Shown here piece after piece: positions 3,140 to 17,226 of a stretch of 32,000 nt of DNA. The notes beneath the pieces were generated by a model. The model saw only the letters and a program-made list of their open reading frames with translations, did not search any database and was not told the DNA's origin. The position numbers and the translations under genes were made by a program. Position 1 is the stretch's first letter. Each line of letters starts with the position of its first letter. Origin of the DNA: an uncultured bacterium (GTDB taxonomy: Bacteria > Margulisbacteria > WOR-1 > CAVSGV01); NCBI GenBank assembly GCA_963699255.1, contig OY969425.1:990001-1022000 (forward strand), given 5' to 3'.

Positions 3140-4963
3140 ATGAGATACATTTCGGAAACAATGAACCTGCGACTAAACCCCAACCAGGGTGTTGGGGTAA
3201 ACGTCGCGGTTCCTTTTAGTGAACGTAAATCGCTCAGATTTTGGAACCGAGAAGTTTATTCTCAGGTTCCAAAAATTATTTGTTTATTGATCGTTTTGAC
3301 CGCGGCATCTGCCGCCTTTCCGGCATCATCACACAGCATCCCGAACCAGACCGCGAACATATCCGCAACAAGAGCTGAGGCTTATTTCGCGCAGGGATAT
3401 CTTTACTTCCTGGAGAAAAGTTATAATGAAGCCATACCGGAATTCGTTAAAGCGCTCCAGCTTGTGCCCGATATGGTTAAAGCTCGTTACTGGATGGCAA
3501 AGACTTATTACCAGTTAGGGCGGTACAAGAACGTCGTAAATCAATGCTCCGCGGCTTTATCTGTCGCCCCGAAATATAAGAACGCGAGATCCCTTCTGCT
3601 TCGCGCGCAGACAATGCTTGATACCGAAAAGGCACCACGGACAAAGGCGGTCAGGGCAAGGAAAAGAACAGGGATAAGAAGAACCATAACAAGAAGGACT
3701 GAAACAAGAAGAACTGAAACAAGCACGGCCACGGTAAACAGCAACTCACAACACACGATCTCCCTGGATCTAAGGAACGTGGACATAAGTTCGGTGCTTC
3801 AGATCCTCTCAAGGGAAACAGGTATCAGCATAATTGCCGGCTCCGACGTATACGGAAAAGTAACGGCCATATTGAACAATGTTCCGCCCCAGGAAGCTCT
3901 TGATACCATACTTAAATCCAACGGCTATACATACACGAGGCAGGGCGACATCGTTCAGGTGTTCTCTTCATCCGAGCCCGCAAGAGTGGAAGAGCTTCCC
4001 GGAGGTGTATTTGTAAGGACGTTCATTATCAATTATGTGGGTCCCGACGAGCTTCTCTCGACCCTGACAAAGCTTATGCCCGAGGATACCAGCATATACA
4101 CAACAAAAGGAAGCAAGACCGTGGTCGTAAAAGGATCCGCCAATGATATCAGGAGAGCGGAAGTCCTGATAAGGAACCTGGACATTCCCCCCCGTCAGGT
4201 AATGGTTGAGGCCAAGATAATCGAGGTGGACCTGAACGAAACTCAAACCTTGGGAATGAACAACTCCTGGACCAATCCGGACAACGCCACTCAGAACCTT
4301 CAAACAACTGGACTTGCGAATCCGCCGACCGCCACCGGAGCAACAGGGCTTTATTACTCGATCACGGACCAGAACATCACATCCCTTGTTGAAGCGCTCT
4401 CAACCAGAACAGGCTTCAACATACTTTCCAGCCCGAAGGTCATGGCCCTGAACGAACAGAAAGCAGAAATAATGACCGGCTCGCAGCTTGGTTACTACGT
4501 AAATACCGTCACGACCACCGGACTTGTGCAGAACGTTGAGTTCATGGATGTCGGCACAAAACTGGACATAACGCCATCGGTAAAGAGCGACGGCATGATC
4601 GTAATGGACATTCACCCCGAAATATCTGACGGTTCGATCGTGAACAATCTCCCTCAAAAGAATTCAACGGAAACAACGACCCAGCTTATAGTGAAGGACG
4701 GGCAGACCATAATAATCGGCGGGCTGGTAAGGGACACTCAACAAAAAGAGGTCCACGGAGTCCCTGTTCTTATGGACATACCGGTTCTTGGAGCCTTTCT
4801 TAAAAGGACGGAATATACTTCCGAGAAAAAGGAGATCATAGTGCTGATGACCCCCCACATAGTGAATTCGAAATATATAGAAGAAATGGAAAGTAAAGCC
4901 TCGGACATGGAAAAACAAAGAAGGGATATCACCCCCTCAATGCCTCTCGACCTTGTAAGGTAA
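3140..4963 (+). CDS. pilQ: type IV pilus / T2SS secretin (PilQ family) with N-terminal TPR repeats and an R/T-rich linker
   Basis: Secretin C-terminal signature GVPVLMDIPVLGAFLKRTEYTSEKKEIIVLMTPHIV. N0/N1-like repeats (ISLDLRNVDISSVLQILSRETGISII). A TPR-like segment (AEAYFAQGYLYFLEKSYNEAIPEFVKALQLVPDMVKARYWMAKTYYQLGRY). Signal-like helix KIICLLIVLTAASAAF. ATG 3140 is translationally coupled (TAAATG). Codons 9-24 are a palindromic repeat insertion. Confidence 0.88.
   Translation: MRYISETMNLRLNPNQGVGVNVAVPFSERKSLRFWNREVYSQVPKIICLLIVLTAASAAFPASSHSIPNQTANISATRAEAYFAQGYLYFLEKSYNEAIPEFVKALQLVPDMVKARYWMAKTYYQLGRYKNVVNQCSAALSVAPKYKNARSLLLRAQTMLDTEKAPRTKAVRARKRTGIRRTITRRTETRRTETSTATVNSNSQHTISLDLRNVDISSVLQILSRETGISIIAGSDVYGKVTAILNNVPPQEALDTILKSNGYTYTRQGDIVQVFSSSEPARVEELPGGVFVRTFIINYVGPDELLSTLTKLMPEDTSIYTTKGSKTVVVKGSANDIRRAEVLIRNLDIPPRQVMVEAKIIEVDLNETQTLGMNNSWTNPDNATQNLQTTGLANPPTATGATGLYYSITDQNITSLVEALSTRTGFNILSSPKVMALNEQKAEIMTGSQLGYYVNTVTTTGLVQNVEFMDVGTKLDITPSVKSDGMIVMDIHPEISDGSIVNNLPQKNSTETTTQLIVKDGQTIIIGGLVRDTQQKEVHGVPVLMDIPVLGAFLKRTEYTSEKKEIIVLMTPHIVNSKYIEEMESKASDMEKQRRDITPSMPLDLVR
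3164..3211. repeat. nested palindromes: element A arms (AACCTGCGAC / GTCGCGGTT) enclosing element B (ACCCCAAC-N6-GTTGGGGT)
   Basis: 3164-3173 pairs with 3203-3211, and 3177-3184 pairs with 3191-3198. The whole element is 48 nt and lies inside the 5' end of the pilQ ORF. Confidence 0.75.
3676..3720 (+). repeat. three imperfect tandem 15-bp units inside pilQ encoding (K)RRT(I/E)T repeats
   Basis: The units are aagaagaaccataac, aagaaggactgaaac and aagaagaactgaaac. They translate to RRTITRRTETRRTET. Confidence 0.7.
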
Positions 4964-9804: not shown

Positions 9805-10306
9805 GAAGTGTGGTAGTTAGAGATTGGAAGTGGGTTATGAATTGTGATGTGGGATGTTTGATTGCATTCCTTGTCGACCAAAAACCATCCAGTTTCGCTT
9901 AAGGTTATAAAGTTGCTTTCCGGCAATTTCATAGGTATCTATAAGATAATTGCATAATTTGTCATCAATCCCATAAACATCCCTGCAAATCACTAAATGC
10001 GGGTTCATTTCATTGCATTCGCCCAGTGCGTCATCCAAATATTTCTTAAAAGCTCTCAATTGATGCTTTTTTGCATAGCCCTCCGCGATGAGTGCAGGTA
10101 TTGCTTTGCAGCATCGTCGCATTTGATCGCCGAGATCGAATTTTTCATAAGTCGGCAACCTTGGGATTAACTTTATTAAGGTTATCTTGGTTGCTTCAAG
10201 AACCCTTTGATAGACATTCAAATCCGTAAAACTTCTTATGCTTTTATTATTCACTTCCAACTTCTCAATTCCAAACTCATTTCCCATTTCCAAATATCCC
10301 ACTTCC
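9805..10306 (-). mobile_element. inverted-repeat-bounded cassette carrying a four-helix-bundle ORF (arms use the GGAAGTG motif)
   Basis: Arms at 9805-9856 and 10252-10306. For example, 9817-9833 ttagagattggaagtgg resembles the reverse complement of 10252-10268 (ttgagaagttggaagtg), and 9805-9813 pairs with 10298-10306. Mobility is inferred, not shown. Confidence 0.5.
9835..10302 (-). CDS. four-helix-bundle protein (23S rRNA intervening-sequence protein / Avd family)
   Basis: FTDLNVYQRVLEATKITLIKLIPRLPTYEKFDLGDQMRRCCKAIPALIAEGYAKKHQLRAFKKYLDDALGECNEMNPHL matches the family pattern as I recall it (L.VWQKA..L...IY..T..FP..E.F.L..Q.RRAA.SI..NIAEG......KE...FL.IA.GS..E). Both ends of the ORF are translated from the flanking repeat arms. 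The real start may be ATG 10287 or later. Confidence 0.8.
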   Translation of the reverse strand: MGYLEMGNEFGIEKLEVNNKSIRSFTDLNVYQRVLEATKITLIKLIPRLPTYEKFDLGDQMRRCCKAIPALIAEGYAKKHQLRAFKKYLDDALGECNEMNPHLVICRDVYGIDDKLCNYLIDTYEIAGKQLYNLKRNWMVFGRQGMQSNIPHHNS

Positions 10307-12978: not shown

Positions 12979-14562
12979 TTATGTCGCGATCCTGGGAAAG
13001 AGTGGCATACCTTTGTTGATCTTAGCAGCAATTTTTTTGCCAAATTCGAGGTTTTTTGGGTCGTCAAGTTCTGACTTTGACAGACCCATCTGGGCAAGCA
13101 TTGCGTTCGAAGTGGCCGGCATAAAAGGCCCTATCATGACCGCCGTTAACCTTAATATTTCAAACAAATTATACATCACGGCCTTCAGTTCTTCGTTCTT
13201 CCCTTCCTTTGAAAGTTTCCAGGGAGCTTCTTTTTCAATATAATTGTTCGCCAGATTGATGAGCTTCCAGACGGAGGCAAGCGCCTCGGAAAATTGAAGT
13301 CCATCCATGTGTTTTGAATATATAGCCGGGGTCTCCTTCGAGAGTTTCACCAGCTGGGAGCTTATGTCGTCAAAGTCCTGCTTAACGGGCATTGACACTT
13401 CGCCGTTGAAATATTTCTCGACCATCGTGAGAGACCTGTTAAGGAGGTTGCCCATATCGTTCGCAAGATCGGAGTTGAACCTCGTTATCAGCGCGTTCTT
13501 TGAATAATCACCGTCATCGCCGAAAGGAACTTCCCTTAATAAAAAGTACCTTACCGCGTCAACGCCGAATTCTTTTGACAGCGCTATCGGGTCAGCGACG
13601 TTCCCTTTTGATTTGGACATCTTCTGGCCTTCGGACGTCCACCATCCGTGGCCGAATATTGTCCTGGGAAGCTTAAGTCCCAATGCCATCAGCATGCACG
13701 GCCATATGACCGCATGGAACCTGACGATCTCTTTCCCCATCAAATGCACGTCCGCCGGCCATAACCTTTCGAACCTCGGCTGGTTCAAGCCGTATCCGGG
13801 CGCCGTAATATAATTGATAAGCGCGTCGAACCAGACGTAAACCACGTGTTTCGGGTCTTCCTTTACCGGGACACCCCAGCTGAAGGCCGTTCTTGTGACG
13901 CTTAGATCCTTCAGCCCGTGCTTCATGAAGCTGATGACCTCGTTCCTGCGCGATTCGGGCTTAATGAAATCGGGATGCGCTTCAATGTGATGGATCAGAT
14001 CCTTCTCATATTTGGAAAGCTTGAAGAAATACGTCTTTTCTTTGATCTTTTGCACCGGCCTTCCGCAATCCGGGCAGAAGTTGCCGTGGGGCTTATGCTC
14101 CACATCGATCGTCTTTGCTTTCGGAGTGTCAAGTTTCGTTTCCTTCAGCTGAAGATCGGTCCAGAAAGTTTCACACGGCGTGCAATACCATCCTTCGTAT
14201 TCTCCCTTGTAAATGTCCCCGGTCTCCAGCAGTTTGGAAAAAACGCTCTGTACCACCTTTACATGCCTGTCCTCCGTAGTGCGGATGAAATCATTATAAG
14301 AAACATTGAGCATTTCCCAGGCGGACTTGAACCTGGTCACAATATCATCACAAAATTCCTGCGGATCTTTGCCCTGGGCTTTTGCCGCCTCCGCTATCTT
14401 TTGGCCGTGCTCATCAGTTCCCGTCAGGAAAAATACGTCATCCCCTTTTAATCTTTTGTAGCGCGCCAGGACATCCGCTGCAATGGTCGTATAAGCATGC
14501 CCTATGTGAGGAATGTCATTGACGTAATAAAGAGGTGTGGTTAAGTAGAATTTCTCTTTCAT
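12979..14562 (-). CDS. metG: methionine--tRNA ligase
   Basis: HIGH motif (PHIGHAYTT), KMSKS motif (QKMSKSKGN), Zn-knuckle cysteines (CTPCETFW..CPDCGRP). Start taken at ATG 14562 (MKEKFYLTTPLYYVNDIP). The 46 upstream ORF-track codons are read through a GC hairpin and a repeat arm. Confidence 0.95.
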   Translation of the reverse strand: MKEKFYLTTPLYYVNDIPHIGHAYTTIAADVLARYKRLKGDDVFFLTGTDEHGQKIAEAAKAQGKDPQEFCDDIVTRFKSAWEMLNVSYNDFIRTTEDRHVKVVQSVFSKLLETGDIYKGEYEGWYCTPCETFWTDLQLKETKLDTPKAKTIDVEHKPHGNFCPDCGRPVQKIKEKTYFFKLSKYEKDLIHHIEAHPDFIKPESRRNEVISFMKHGLKDLSVTRTAFSWGVPVKEDPKHVVYVWFDALINYITAPGYGLNQPRFERLWPADVHLMGKEIVRFHAVIWPCMLMALGLKLPRTIFGHGWWTSEGQKMSKSKGNVADPIALSKEFGVDAVRYFLLREVPFGDDGDYSKNALITRFNSDLANDMGNLLNRSLTMVEKYFNGEVSMPVKQDFDDISSQLVKLSKETPAIYSKHMDGLQFSEALASVWKLINLANNYIEKEAPWKLSKEGKNEELKAVMYNLFEILRLTAVMIGPFMPATSNAMLAQMGLSKSELDDPKNLEFGKKIAAKINKGMPLFPRIAT

Positions 14563-14596
14563 GAATGGAATTATAGCATAAAAATGAGGTGTGAGA

Positions 14597-14616
14597 CCCC
14601 GCGACTTCGCGCGGGG
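14597..14616. repeat. GC-rich hairpin CCCCGCG-ACTTCG-CGCGGGG
   Basis: Perfect 7-bp stem in the metG / proteasome-like divergent intergenic region. Confidence 0.6.
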
Positions 14617-14656
14617 CAAGCGCGAGATGGGAAGTGAGAGATGTGAAAATACAAAT

Positions 14657-14682
14657 AGTACGATCGTTATAGTACGATCGTT
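14657..14682. promoter_or_regulatory. two tandem copies of AGTACGATCGTT, each with the perfect palindrome ACGATCGT; candidate operator
   Basis: Copies at 14657-14668 and 14671-14682 (14-bp period). The second ends 2 nt before the -35 hexamer. Confidence 0.45.
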
Positions 14683-14683
14683 T

Positions 14684-14712
14684 TTGCAAATATCGGTCAA
14701 AAGGAATATAAT
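14684..14712 (+). promoter_or_regulatory. sigma70-like promoter: -35 TTGCAA, 17-nt spacer, -10 TATAAT
   Basis: TTGCAA at 14684-14689 and TATAAT at 14707-14712, read directly. The predicted TSS is near 14718-14720, which is downstream of ATG 14715 and 7-9 nt upstream of ATG 14727. Confidence 0.55.
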
Positions 14713-14714
14713 CC

Positions 14715-15449
14715 ATGACGGTTGTTATGTCATTAGTCATTACAATATATGTACGCGAGGGCATCGTCATGGCCAGCGACAGCAGGCTGACCCTGAACGC
14801 CACGCAAAACCAGCCCGGCAGCCCTCAAATAGTGAATGTGGCGGTCGGACAAAGCGATACGGTATATAAAACTTTTTTGACCTCTAACAGGATCGGCATC
14901 TCAACTTTCGGCGCCGCGGATATCAAAGACGTACCGATCACCGGTTTTATGGAATCCTTCATAAACGACCACATCGCGCAAAAGAACGTAAGCCTTAACA
15001 ATGTGCCTCAGGAATTATTAAAATATTTCAGGAACATCTCCCCGGACCTCCAGATCGGCTTTCATGTAGCCGGCTATACATCGGCCAGCAACGTGCCGGA
15101 ACAAAGCGTCTGGGCGGTCGATGTTCACGGGAACGCTATCACCCGTCTTAATAAACCCGGGCAGCCCGGAGCATCCTGGGCGGGTGAAGCCGAGATACTG
15201 GCGAGGCTGATCAATCCGGTAAGGGTCGAGAACAGTCCAGGTAATTTTATCGATCTTCCTTTTGCCCAGATCCAGTTCGGATACTTTACCATACAGGATG
15301 CCGTTGATTTCGCCGTTTACGCGATAAGAACAACTATCGATTCTTTCAGGTTCCAACCCCGGCCCAAAACCGTCGGCGGGCCGATAGATATCCTGGTAAT
15401 AAGGCCGAACGAGGCTTTTTGGGTTCAGAGAAAAGAATTACACGCTTAG
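14715..15449 (+). CDS. proteasome beta-subunit-like Ntn hydrolase (Anbu/BPH/HslV-like), orphan
   Basis: The N-terminus M(TVVM)SLVITIYVREGIVMASDSRLT resembles HslV [22 protein letters not shown] and the Anbu-type ..GLVF.SDSRTNAG as I recall them. A downstream VYKTFL...IGISTFGAADI resembles the Lys33 / GxxG region. Start is either ATG 14715 (AAGGA 9 nt upstream) or in-frame ATG 14727, which the promoter geometry favours. Confidence 0.6.
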   Translation: MTVVMSLVITIYVREGIVMASDSRLTLNATQNQPGSPQIVNVAVGQSDTVYKTFLTSNRIGISTFGAADIKDVPITGFMESFINDHIAQKNVSLNNVPQELLKYFRNISPDLQIGFHVAGYTSASNVPEQSVWAVDVHGNAITRLNKPGQPGASWAGEAEILARLINPVRVENSPGNFIDLPFAQIQFGYFTIQDAVDFAVYAIRTTIDSFRFQPRPKTVGGPIDILVIRPNEAFWVQRKELHA

Positions 15450-15564
15450 ACAATATTTTTATGCTCCCTCGTCACAACTCCCTACAATTGTCGAATATCA
15501 CCACATCAATATAAGTCAATTAAACATAAAGCAATTGGAATAATAATTGCTTATCTCAATTTAC

Positions 15565-15951
15565 ATGTACATGAAACCCATTAAGAAAGTATTCGCAAGA
15601 CAGCTCAGAAGATACGAAACTAAAGCAGAAAAGATAATATGGAGACTTCTAAGAAATAGACGTTTTCAAGGGTTTAAATTCCGCCGACAGCATGTTGTAG
15701 AAGGTTTCGTAGCAGATTTTTGCTGTCATAAGCTCAAGTTTATTGTAGAAATTGATGGATGGGTTCATAAGAAGCAGAAAAGATATGACGAAATTCGGGA
15801 TATTATTTTGATGTCAAAAGGCTATTCAATTATCAGATTCAAGAATGAGGATGTCGTCGAAGATTTATCGAAAGTATGCCAAGATTTGGAGAACGCCCTC
15901 ACCCTAGCCCTCTCCCCGGGGGAGAGGAAAGCAAAACGAAAGCTATTCTGA
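15565..15951 (+). CDS. DUF559 / Vsr-like endonuclease domain protein
   Basis: ARQLRRYETKAEKIIWRLLRNRRFQGFKFRRQHVVEGFVADFCCHKLKFIVEIDGWVH...IIRFKNEDV is the DUF559 pattern (restriction-endonuclease-like fold). Start uncertain: TTG 15547, ATG 15565 or ATG 15571. Confidence 0.8.
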   Translation: MYMKPIKKVFARQLRRYETKAEKIIWRLLRNRRFQGFKFRRQHVVEGFVADFCCHKLKFIVEIDGWVHKKQKRYDEIRDIILMSKGYSIIRFKNEDVVEDLSKVCQDLENALTLALSPGERKAKRKLF

Positions 15952-15996
15952 AGCTCTAGTGGGTGAGGTACTTTTCTCATCTCACATCTCTCATCT

Positions 15997-17226
15997 CTAC
16001 TTTCCCTGATATACCGGGAACAAGATCCTTATATGTGAAACATCCTCCATCGCGGTATTCGCCCATCTCGGAAGCTGTTTGTTAAGCGACATGTGGTAAA
16101 CCGGCATCATTTCCCATCCTTCTTTACCTTTGTATTTGACCTCCACCAAAAATCTCTCGAGCAGCCGTTTTTCCCAATCAGGCTTTTCTATGTCATCTTC
16201 ACTATATCTTGGTTGAAGATAATACTTGAAAAACGGAGCCATTCCCTCAAAAGACTGATCGAGAGCGTTCAAGGGGCCTATCACCATCCACTGGGTGAGA
16301 GTGCGTGCCGTGATCATCTCCTTGCTCATCCCGTGGCCGGAGGGGATTATCTGGAACCCTCCGATCAGGCCGAGCGGGGAAGTGGCTATGCAAATTACCC
16401 CCGCGTGGTTCGCGCGTATTCGCCCGACATCGGCGTATTCGGAACCGAGGAACCTGCCAACTCCCTCTATCGGGCGCAGGACCTGTCCGATGTAACGCTG
16501 CTCCCCGTCAATATATTTGATGGTTATCAGCCCGCCGAACCTGTTCTCAAAAATGATCTCTTTCGGGTATCTCGCCGGCCTTTCGACATTGATCAAGATG
16601 ACATCCCCGATGCGGGGGATATATCCGGTCTTGAGCGGGTAAAGGTTCCCGCTTGAGTCGGAGGTGGACACCGTGTTGCCAACAAAAGGGGAATATCCTC
16701 CGCCGAATATGCCATGTCCTGCATTGATGTCCGTGTATATGGTGGCTTCCTGGCTTGTTCTCATTTTGGGATCGGCAGAGTAATCTTCTTTTGGAAGGAT
16801 GTTGAAGATAACGCCTTTATCATCGATCGAGTTGTAATCGGTCTTTATGTGGATGGCGTTCACGGCCGTAGCCGCAACGTCGCCGTCGTCGATCCACTTA
16901 GAAGCCGTATATCCCTGGTTGCTCACCATCTTAGCCGGAAGAATGACATGCCCGAGAGTTTTCCAGGTCTGGCCCTTATTTTCACTGACCTCGATCGATC
17001 CCCCTGCGGCGTTGGATATCCTGATCCTGTACATTTCCATCATCATGGGCCTGTTCTCCGGAGCTATTGATTCTGAGGTCCCGATAGTTTGGAGAGAAGA
17101 ATATGATTTACCCGCAAAAAACACTAAACCTGCGACTAAAGTCGCGGTTAAAGTCAAAATTATCCGAGACTTTACCCCAACACGTTGGTTGGGGTTTAGT
17201 TTCGGGGCATTTTTTTCATGTGGCAT
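15997..17226 (-). CDS. hypothetical protein with one Asp-box (BNR) motif
   Basis: Long ORF with codon usage like its neighbours. It has a SENKGQTW Asp-box (16963-16986). The first ~36 codons are translated from palindromic repeats at 17127-17205. An alternative start is the ATG triplet at 17046-17038 (MMMEMYRIR). Confidence 0.55.
   Translation of the reverse strand: MPHEKNAPKLNPNQRVGVKSRIILTLTATLVAGLVFFAGKSYSSLQTIGTSESIAPENRPMMMEMYRIRISNAAGGSIEVSENKGQTWKTLGHVILPAKMVSNQGYTASKWIDDGDVAATAVNAIHIKTDYNSIDDKGVIFNILPKEDYSADPKMRTSQEATIYTDINAGHGIFGGGYSPFVGNTVSTSDSSGNLYPLKTGYIPRIGDVILINVERPARYPKEIIFENRFGGLITIKYIDGEQRYIGQVLRPIEGVGRFLGSEYADVGRIRANHAGVICIATSPLGLIGGFQIIPSGHGMSKEMITARTLTQWMVIGPLNALDQSFEGMAPFFKYYLQPRYSEDDIEKPDWEKRLLERFLVEVKYKGKEGWEMMPVYHMSLNKQLPRWANTAMEDVSHIRILFPVYQGK
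17127..17205. repeat. element A (AACCTGCGACT-AA-AGTCGCGGTT) followed by element C split by a nested element B
   Basis: A occupies 17127-17149. CCGAGACT at 17164-17171 pairs with AGTTTCGG at 17198-17205. Between them, ACCCCAAC at 17174-17181 pairs with GTTGGGGT at 17188-17195. Confidence 0.75.

Follow-up and report, generated by a model that had tools for sequence, protein, structure and literature searches.

In the complete genome of an uncultured member of the Margulisbacteria (G000; 1.77 Mb, GC 47.5%), metG, the gene for methionyl-tRNA synthetase, is separated from a conserved gene of 409 residues, p409, by a two-gene island that encodes a proteasome-like Ntn hydrolase and a DUF559 protein and is bracketed by inverted arms built of heptameric repeats. 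The island lies within a stretch of 32,000 nucleotides (the window, G000:C1:990001-1022000), and positions given below are those of the window unless the genome is named. Comparison with relatives (genomes or contigs, labelled G001-G007, L010, and L044-L065) suggests, with a probability of about 70%, that the island was assembled stepwise and that its arms are independent members of a (GAGATGN)n repeat family, differing in age, rather than the ends of an element that moved as a whole.

From position 4937 on, long open reading frames are found on the minus strand only, apart from the two of the island (14715/14727-15449 and 15565-15951), as a preliminary description of the sequence had stated. 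The same description drew attention to an exact 12-nt inverted match, which is indeed present as TGAGAGATGTGA at 14635-14646 and its reverse complement at 15982-15993. The arms may also be paired imperfectly over longer stretches, 14635-14655 with 15973-15993 (21 nt, 81% complementarity) and 14629-14646 with 15989-16006 (18 nt, 78%). The left arm, identified by a tract scan, is the plus-strand array GAGATGG GAAGTGA GAGATGT GAAAA (14621-14648), directly upstream of the metG -10 box. The right arm reads GAGATGA GAGATGT GAGATGA GAAAAG on the minus strand (15972-15996) and, as had been noted, abuts p409, whose stop codon TAG occupies 15997-15999.

Site History in Related Genomes

The region is flanked by metG (12979-14562, minus strand; Pfam PF09334, E 7e-115) and the M17 aminopeptidase gene pepA. 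p409 itself (15997-17226, minus strand) is a core gene of the class without an assigned family, found in 40 of 41 class genomes. Comparison of the metG-pepA interval among relatives bears out the proposal that the block is an insertion. G003, G005, and G006 lack it, and there the p409 stop codon overlaps the metG start or lies within about 25 nt of it. In G003 and G005 the two codons form a TTGA stop/start overlap, the TTG of which starts metG; filled variants start with ATG (14562-14560 in G000). The filled sites themselves differ in content: G001, L058, and L065 carry DUF559 only, L059-L064 a 145-residue gene together with DUF559, and G000, L045, L046, and L057 the Ntn gene together with DUF559. 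The Ntn gene is found without DUF559 in L047, and together with a 347-residue gene in L044; in both contigs a solitary end of the DUF559 unit (GGGTGAG) has been kept.

The simplest insertion is seen in L058, which is the sister of the empty-site G005 in the p409 tree (100/100 support) and 89-91% identical to it in DNA right up to the junction. In G005 the junction reads GGTTTCA followed by AGTTTTCCCCTCCC, the insertion point lying between the two. The insert of L058 comprises 544 bp plus a duplicated TCA (3 bp). A common left end, TTTATG(C/A)TATAATTC, is shared by the filled variants G000, G001, L044-L047, L058, and L059. The G000 island is homologous to the L058 unit up to 14583 and again from 15470. 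The 886 nt between (14584-15469) are an addition relative to the L058-type unit and contain an array, a GC-rich hairpin, a duplicated palindrome, a predicted promoter, and the Ntn gene; the right arm is a further difference. The last codons of p409 have been remodelled by insertion, the C-terminus being YREGKT* in both G005 and L058, YTEGRT* in the empty-site G003, YQTK* in L044, L045, and L047, and YQGK* in G000, with L057 similar by junction reading.

Two further observations concern the target and its later history. An CCCCTCCCT sequence (the complement of the metG ribosome-binding site) lies about 8 nt from the insertion point in the empty target, and one might speculate that it explains the choice of site. 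L045 and L047, two contigs from one metagenome sample, have flanks that are 94-100% identical and Ntn interiors that are 61-76% identical, and only one of the two carries DUF559. This contrast indicates a segmental replacement of alleles inside the island between near-identical strains.

Probable Difference in Age of the Two Arms

An array on the metG side of the island is found in most filled variants, and its form varies. The left array consists of 7-mers in L046 and L044, of octamers in G001 and L059 (with GAGATGACGAGATGA in common), and of a short degenerate run in L045 and L047; it is reversed in L065, and L058 has none. The right arm is confined to G000, in which the 26-nt AGATGAGAGATGTGAGATGAGAAAAG follows the p409 TAG. 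None of the other eight junctions that could be read (L044, L045, L047, L057, L058, L059, L065, and G001) has it. Seven of these read (G)GGTGAG(G)xx and then directly the p409 stop codon, and L058 holds just 10 nt, GCGAGAGAAG, at the corresponding spot. A pattern scan of metagenomes for further right junctions returned only chance matches in an unrelated gene. Since G000 shares the YQxK* C-terminus of p409 with the armless L044, L045, and L047, a single gain of the right arm is far more economical than several losses with identical boundaries. The arms were thus probably added at different times, which argues against their being the ends of a mobile cassette. The preliminary description had proposed that the arms bound a general cassette system, and had named relatives with both genes and no arms as evidence that would count against it. 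At this locus the proposal is not supported: L045 and L057 carry both genes without a right arm, and the left array of L045 is the short and degenerate one.

The (GAGATGN)n Repeat Family

The heptamers of the arms belong to a family dispersed throughout the G000 genome. Tracts were located by scanning windows of three GAGATGN heptamers for at least 15 matches at the 18 fixed positions; this dedicated scan replaced a TRF-based search for array pairs with cargo, which was dropped after missing the left arm of the island and the arms around the four-helix-bundle genes of the window. The genome contains 71 such tracts. All nine genomic occurrences of the 12-mer TGAGAGATGTGA fall within them, and 25.7% of all 2,485 tract pairs have an identical stretch of at least 12 nt in common. 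These figures do not bear out the earlier estimate that a 12-nt match at the two junctions would be very unlikely by chance. The best matches to the right arm are the tracts at genome positions 1157022 (26 nt), 1191156 (23 nt), and 1307072 (22 nt), and the local left arm ranks only 57th of 70 as a match to it (29th of 70 in the reciprocal comparison). The 26-nt identity with the tract at 1157022 was considered as a sign of copying and rejected, as only three variable heptamer positions must agree by chance. Rank by complementarity was likewise uninformative as a test of pairing, for even the two arms of a short GAGATGN hairpin are not mutual best matches (ranks 27-59 of 70). The arm pairs of short hairpins do not seem to evolve in concert.

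All 11 tract pairs less than 100 nt apart are hairpins with the G-rich arm on the 5' side ("+-"). Sixteen pairs lie 100-4000 nt apart, against 11.0 +/- 3.3 expected under random placement, and their orientations (++ 4, -+ 3, +- 5, -- 4) show no enrichment of inverted pairs, so that an inverted pair of this family with its arms a kilobase or so apart is no more than would be expected by chance. Two of the five "+-" pairs have an arm in common with a short hairpin, and the remaining three surround, respectively, a four-helix-bundle gene (genome 716294-716788), a nickel-uptake operon downstream of nikR (genome 1307072-1308956), and the island studied here. The suggestion that other copies of the arms should be sought and their contents inspected thus has a divided outcome: the motif is not unique to the locus, but pairs at kilobase spacing enclose ordinary genes with the exception of the one four-helix-bundle gene.

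Arrays of this family are often found at the ends of genes. Some 10 tracts overlap a stop codon. p409 (window 15997-16020) and nikR (genome 1307066-1307100) share their final 22 nt, TAGAGATGAGAGATGTGAGATG, and in both the array supplies or abuts the stop. A rule by which the G-rich array would always stand in the sense orientation after a stop codon was tried and fails for lone arrays, about six of which obey it and five do not. One GAGATGN hairpin lies in frame within a tsaD/Kae1-like gene (genome 1153010-1153085, about 131 kb past the end of the window; translation ...ETRDARREMRKNKSHLTSHTSHLT...), so such arrays persist even within an essential gene. In G007 (L010), a distant member of the class, the gap after the p409 stop is filled by a different repeat, with units of the CTTACAAATAAC type, which suggests that the same junction was colonized independently by another array family.

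Probable Stepwise Assembly of the Island

Taken together, the variants suggest that an accessory island, 14563-15996, was put together in three or four steps or more at a single hot spot, the TTGA overlap that once would have coupled p409 to metG. A small DUF559 unit, in its simplest form 544 bp with a 3-bp duplication of TCA, would have inserted first. With its outer end this unit would have supplied a promoter of the extended -10 type (TGnTATAAT), separated by 7 nt from a new ATG, and metG, severed from its operon, would then have been expressed from the promoter of the unit as a probably leaderless mRNA. In a second phase the gap between this promoter and DUF559 would have gained a heptamer or octamer array. 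A stand-alone Ntn gene with its own promoter may have entered the same gap in the G000 clade, and a 145-residue or 347-residue gene in other lineages; a small GC-rich hairpin element would have been added in G000 and L046. The last step, probably confined to the G000 lineage, would be the gain of the 26-nt heptamer array after the p409 stop. The (GAGATGN)n arrays would accordingly represent a genome-wide family that colonizes gene junctions. The insertion polymorphism, the order of additions, the existence and statistics of the repeat family, the folds of the two proteins, and the purifying selection on both genes are the findings on which this account is built; the function of the promoters, horizontal movement of the DUF559 unit to the same site, and a role for the arrays are inferred.

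Several points weigh against this account. The sequence of L046, the closest relative, ends short of the right junction, and the p409 tree is an unresolved polytomy within the family, because of which the gain of the right arm rests on parsimony together with the near-identical armless junctions. The argument from synonymous sites presented below for DUF559 relies on 126-128 codons of an AT-rich gene, a noisy measure, and microhomology might account for the single 3-bp duplication (chance about 1 in 64). The arms also have the polarity of the short hairpins, with the G-rich arm 5' and the A-rich ends of the arrays toward the cargo. The chance of this is only about 1 in 4, so that a functional pairing which evolved after insertion retains some likelihood.

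Alternative Explanations

The preliminary description regarded the GAGA/TCTC arms as terminal inverted repeats that delivered both genes as one unit. Inverted arms do stand exactly at both junctions, and a similar architecture surrounds the four-helix-bundle genes of the window. This explanation is hardly credible given the different ages of the arms, the presence of the same two genes without a right arm in L045 and L057, the single copy of each gene with no second copy of the block in the genome, and the differing histories and compositions of the two genes, which arrived separately. A comparison of composition with the flanks had been proposed and gives a mixed answer: DUF559 is foreign by this measure (GC 0.388, GC at third codon positions [GC3] 0.403, 6th GC percentile), but the Ntn gene (GC 0.503, GC3 0.598, 74th percentile) is close to p409 (0.499, 0.600, 69th percentile) and metG (0.481, 0.603, 47th percentile) and is therefore indistinguishable from its flanks. 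DUF559 resembles in this respect the two four-helix-bundle genes of the window (GC about 0.38, GC3 0.33-0.39, about the 5th percentile). A complete heptamer hairpin might instead have occupied the p409/metG junction first, serving as a landing pad whose loop received the cargo, with the right arm lost in all relatives. Short GAGATGN hairpins are common at gene junctions, one of them in frame within tsaD, and one hairpin of the family encloses the four-helix-bundle gene at 716294-716788. We regard such a landing pad as very unlikely, as no relative has an empty hairpin at the junction, the empty sites are entirely without heptamers, the DUF559 unit of L058 lacks a left array and has just 10 nt on its right side, and at least two independent losses of the right arm with identical boundaries would be required.

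It is also conceivable, if unlikely, that the arms became a functional pair after insertion. In a read-through RNA of pepA, p409, and metG, the array of GAGAUG downstream of the p409 stop would form a stem with the CAUCUC array upstream of metG, and RNase III would cut the stem and remove the antisense segment of 1.3 kb. RNase III is encoded in the G000 genome, the lineage that gained the second arm already had the first, the arms share their polarity with all 11 short hairpins, the A-rich ends of both arrays face the cargo, and there is a precedent in the intervening sequence (IVS) of Coxiella, a 28-bp stem with variable heptamers that is cut by RNase III (PMC4990558). Set against this are a complementarity of just 21 nt at 81% over a loop of 1.3 kb, the poor mutual match of the arms (ranks 57 and 29 of 70), the lack of any excess of inverted pairs at kilobase distances, and eight related islands that function without the right arm. 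A long-range stem resembling an IVS might form, polarity being the one feature that would speak for it. As a broader possibility, and a quite unlikely one, foreign inserts may acquire heptamer arrays de novo at their edges, and these arrays may then become complementary to each other, with G000 just past the gain of the second arm; if so, stems of the IVS type would be a secondary adaptation for processing transcripts around an antisense insert and not the termini with which it arrived. We favor stepwise assembly with independent arrays over each of these explanations.

The metG Side of the Island

The constant left end of the inserted unit contains a predicted extended -10 promoter of the TGnTATAAT type, TGCTATAAT (14570-14578, minus strand), 7 nt upstream of the metG ATG; this short distance leads to the prediction of a leaderless metG mRNA. 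Beyond it lie an outer remnant of the left array, TGAGGTGTGAGA (14585-14596, plus strand), and a GC-rich hairpin, CCCCGCG-ACTTCG-CGCGGGG (14597-14616), which cuts the remnant off from the rest of the array. The same layout is found in L046, and the hairpin is seen at this locus in G000 and L046 only. It represents a small element found nested in heptamer arrays (CTTGCCCCGC-loop-GCGGGGTCTC; 14593-14621 in the window), of which the genome has about six related copies. The others are at genome positions 418213, 834343, 835470, 1127780, and 1317132, several of them nested in CATCTC heptamer arrays of the same orientation. The hairpin is placed like a terminator before the metG promoter and may be useful against read-through from upstream. 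Between the left arm and the Ntn promoter, a tandem duplication of ATAGTACGATCGTT (14655-14682, plus strand) contains two ACGATCGT palindromes; the duplication is specific to G000 and absent from L044-L047. The palindrome was considered as a genome signature of the HIP1 kind and rejected, as it is not enriched in the genome.

The DUF559 Unit and Its Repeats

DUF559 (15565-15951, plus strand) encodes a protein of 128 residues with a Vsr-like PD-(D/E)XK nuclease fold (PF04480, E 1e-35, 122 bits against a cut-off of 20.6). In PADLOC it gave a weak "HEase" match only. The gene is preceded by a conserved non-coding region (15470-15564, plus strand) that is homologous in L058, L059, L065, L045, and L057. 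A CCCTCTCCC-loop-GGGAGAGGG hairpin is found on the 5' side of the gene at 28 of 30 DUF559 loci of the class and on the 3' side at 29 of 30, with an outer left terminus CCCTCACCC at 20 of the 30 loci and an outer right terminus GGGTGAGGG at 25. G000 and G001 are the only two loci of the 30 without the 5' hairpin, and both also lack the left terminus. The hairpin-less region at 15470-15564 is therefore probably a decayed 5' arm, and the locus has the 3' arm only (15896-15968). This arm consists of an element, CCCTCACCC TAG CCCTCTCCCC GGGGGAGAGG (15896-15927, plus strand), that lies inside the 3' end of DUF559 and resembles the triplex motif (compare the TMECO consensus, PMC4666352), and of the right terminus of the unit, GGGTGAGG (15961-15968, plus strand), which pairs with the CCCTCACCC at 15896-15904. 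A solitary GGGTGAGG end has been kept in L044 and L047 after loss of DUF559. The hairpin (15895-15930, minus strand) was also considered as a whalefall-1 RNA; the match was dropped, being below threshold in Rfam (21.9 bits against 37) and absent from 20 other DUF559 loci.

The same terminus, GGGTGAGG, forms the right inverted end of about 13 gene-less repeats in G000. These are about 95 nt long and have CCTCACCCC...GGGGTGAGG as their ends; inside they carry a CCCCTCTCC/GGAGAGGGG hairpin and a core, TCTACTAATTCTAGTTGCGTAACT, that is conserved (for example at genome positions 81832, 185240, 622893, 899385, 1231108, 1327785, and 1554689). They look like miniature DUF559 cassettes; DUF559 itself is present once in the genome.

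The seg and mob genes of T4-like phages are free-standing homing endonuclease genes, and DUF559 shares several features with them. In several lineages this small gene for a predicted nuclease occupies one and the same intergenic site with conserved genes on either side, alleles without it exist, including a clean filled/empty pair, and the element is younger than its flanks by divergence at silent sites. Identity at third codon positions among G000, L058, L059, and L065 is 0.65-0.76 for DUF559 against 0.47-0.53 for the flanking pepA (this measure was used because synonymous divergence by YN00 fails on saturated pairs), and the non-coding 5' region of L058 is 0.72-0.73 identical to those of L059 and L065. 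The lower divergence at silent sites suggests that the DUF559 unit spread horizontally between lineages into the same site. The ratio of nonsynonymous to synonymous substitution rates (dN/dS) is about 0.06-0.31, or about 0.15 as a single value, indicating purifying selection. The earlier remark that DUF559 genes look selfish is supported here, as the gene behaves like a selfish element. The likeness to homing genes has its limits: DUF559 is not an established homing family, no co-conversion of flanks is seen at its site, and a 3-bp duplication is unexpected from homing. A target-site duplication would be expected of a transposable element of the IS or MITE type, and the duplicated TCA in the filled/empty pair L058 and G005 may be one; no transposase gene is present, and inspection of the sequences revealed no inverted repeats at either end of the 544-bp unit.

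The Ntn Hydrolase

The first gene of the island is preceded by a predicted promoter (TTGCAA, 17 nt, TATAAT; 14684-14712, plus strand) within a block that also precedes the gene, in conserved form, in L044-L047 and, in another context, in L048. It encodes a proteasome-beta-like Ntn hydrolase of 240 residues (14727-15449, plus strand). Homologues begin at the second ATG, so the real start is at 14727 and not at 14715. At least 1,606 homologues were found, mostly of 239-244 residues, and aligned distant ones are 53-60% identical, some of them assigned by their sources to Chloroflexi, Deltaproteobacteria, or Gallionella. All 30 aligned sequences have S or T at position 2; they share D18, S19, and R20 without exception, and K48 almost without exception. 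In an alignment whose register was set by hand, Ser2 falls on the Thr1 nucleophile of the proteasome and would take its place as the predicted nucleophile. The gene is under strong purifying selection (dN/dS 0.05-0.11).

The label "proteasome-like" given to this protein in the preliminary description is correct at the level of the fold. An AlphaFold2 model built from the homologue alignment (pLDDT 76, pTM 0.77) has the predicted alpha-beta-beta-alpha sandwich of Ntn hydrolases and gave 517 matches to PDB structures at E<=1e-3; all 50 of the top-listed matches are chains of the 20S proteasome. Likeness to the proteasome beta subunit and HslV extends from structure (Foldseek E down to 7e-8, TM 0.57-0.70) to the N-terminal motif S-x4-x-YVREGxVMASDSRxT, which aligns with T1...G11..D17.R19.T21. 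In contrast to these proteins, the hydrolase has Ser and not Thr after Met1, has about 40 extra residues, and is encoded by a gene that stands alone, without an alpha subunit or an ATPase partner. Searches of Pfam (including PF00227) and NCBIfam returned nothing but noise at E<=1, and neither PADLOC nor the sequences of the PDB gave a match. The gene is absent from all 40 species-level relatives, no match was found on phages or plasmids, and elsewhere it stands alone among unrelated neighbors. On these sequences the protein belongs to a large unnamed family of predicted hydrolases with a patchy distribution, in which Ser (sometimes Thr) directly follows Met1.

Relation to Known Systems

Heptameric intergenic simple-sequence repeats also occur in cyanobacteria, as the STRR heptamers. 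The GAGATGN family resembles the GGGNATC-type heptamer repeats of Xanthomonas and Nostoc in its period of 7 nt, its variable copy number, its many copies per genome, and its location between co-oriented open reading frames, within tens of nucleotides after a stop or before a start (PMC4692102). It differs from them in lacking G-tracts, and hence quadruplex potential, in the constant inversion of close pairs, whose 5' arm is the G-rich one, and in the overlap of some arrays with stop codons or their placement in frame within genes.

Intervening sequences of 23S rRNA that contain an open reading frame are described from Coxiella burnetii and Leptospira (PMC4990558). Like these, the island has a gene content enclosed by inverted arms built of heptamers, with arrays of at least three heptamers on either side (14621-14648, plus strand; 15972-15996, minus strand). 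A cassette with inverted arms, alike in design, is found in the window at a distance of 4 kb (9835-10302), and a GAGATGN-armed one at 716294-716788 of the genome. Unlike the 23S sequences, the island lies outside rRNA and has a loop of 1.3 kb with two unrelated genes. Its cargo is not the four-helix-bundle family PF05635 but PF04480 together with an Ntn-like gene without a Pfam family, and arms and cargo have not been gained or lost jointly, given the absence of a right arm from L045 and L057 and the DUF559 unit of L058 without arrays.

The 3' end of DUF559 follows the CCCTCNCCC ... GGGNGAGGG design of the triplex motif (TMECO/PIT/BoxC), and the similarity includes the gene-less copies of about 95 nt in G000 and the variability of loci around such motifs (PMC4666352). 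That paper names no gene associated with the motif, and "DUF559" does not occur in it, whereas in this class the motif flanks the DUF559 gene at 28-29 of 30 loci, the copy at the G000 locus having lost its 5' arm. DUF559 is likely to be the partner nuclease of triplex-motif repeats of the PIT/BoxC kind. A small single-copy nuclease gene framed by a hairpin motif that is also dispersed in gene-less form is likewise found in Ssn/NTS (PMC11893778) and REP/RAYT; the predicted nuclease of DUF559 has a Vsr-like PD-(D/E)XK fold and not the GIY-YIG fold or that of a HUH transposase.

Implications

The locus offers a rare time series, from an empty site to a unit with a predicted nuclease, then an added array, an added cargo gene, and a second array, and it documents one instance in which a heptamer array arose beside an insert already in place. 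Genes may be enclosed by inverted heptamer arms without forming a mobile unit, which calls for caution in the reading of heptamer-armed cassettes. The locus also points to a large unnamed family of predicted proteasome-like hydrolases of the Ser type. For the organism itself, the insertion appears to repair the operon that it splits, through a promoter for a predicted leaderless metG mRNA.

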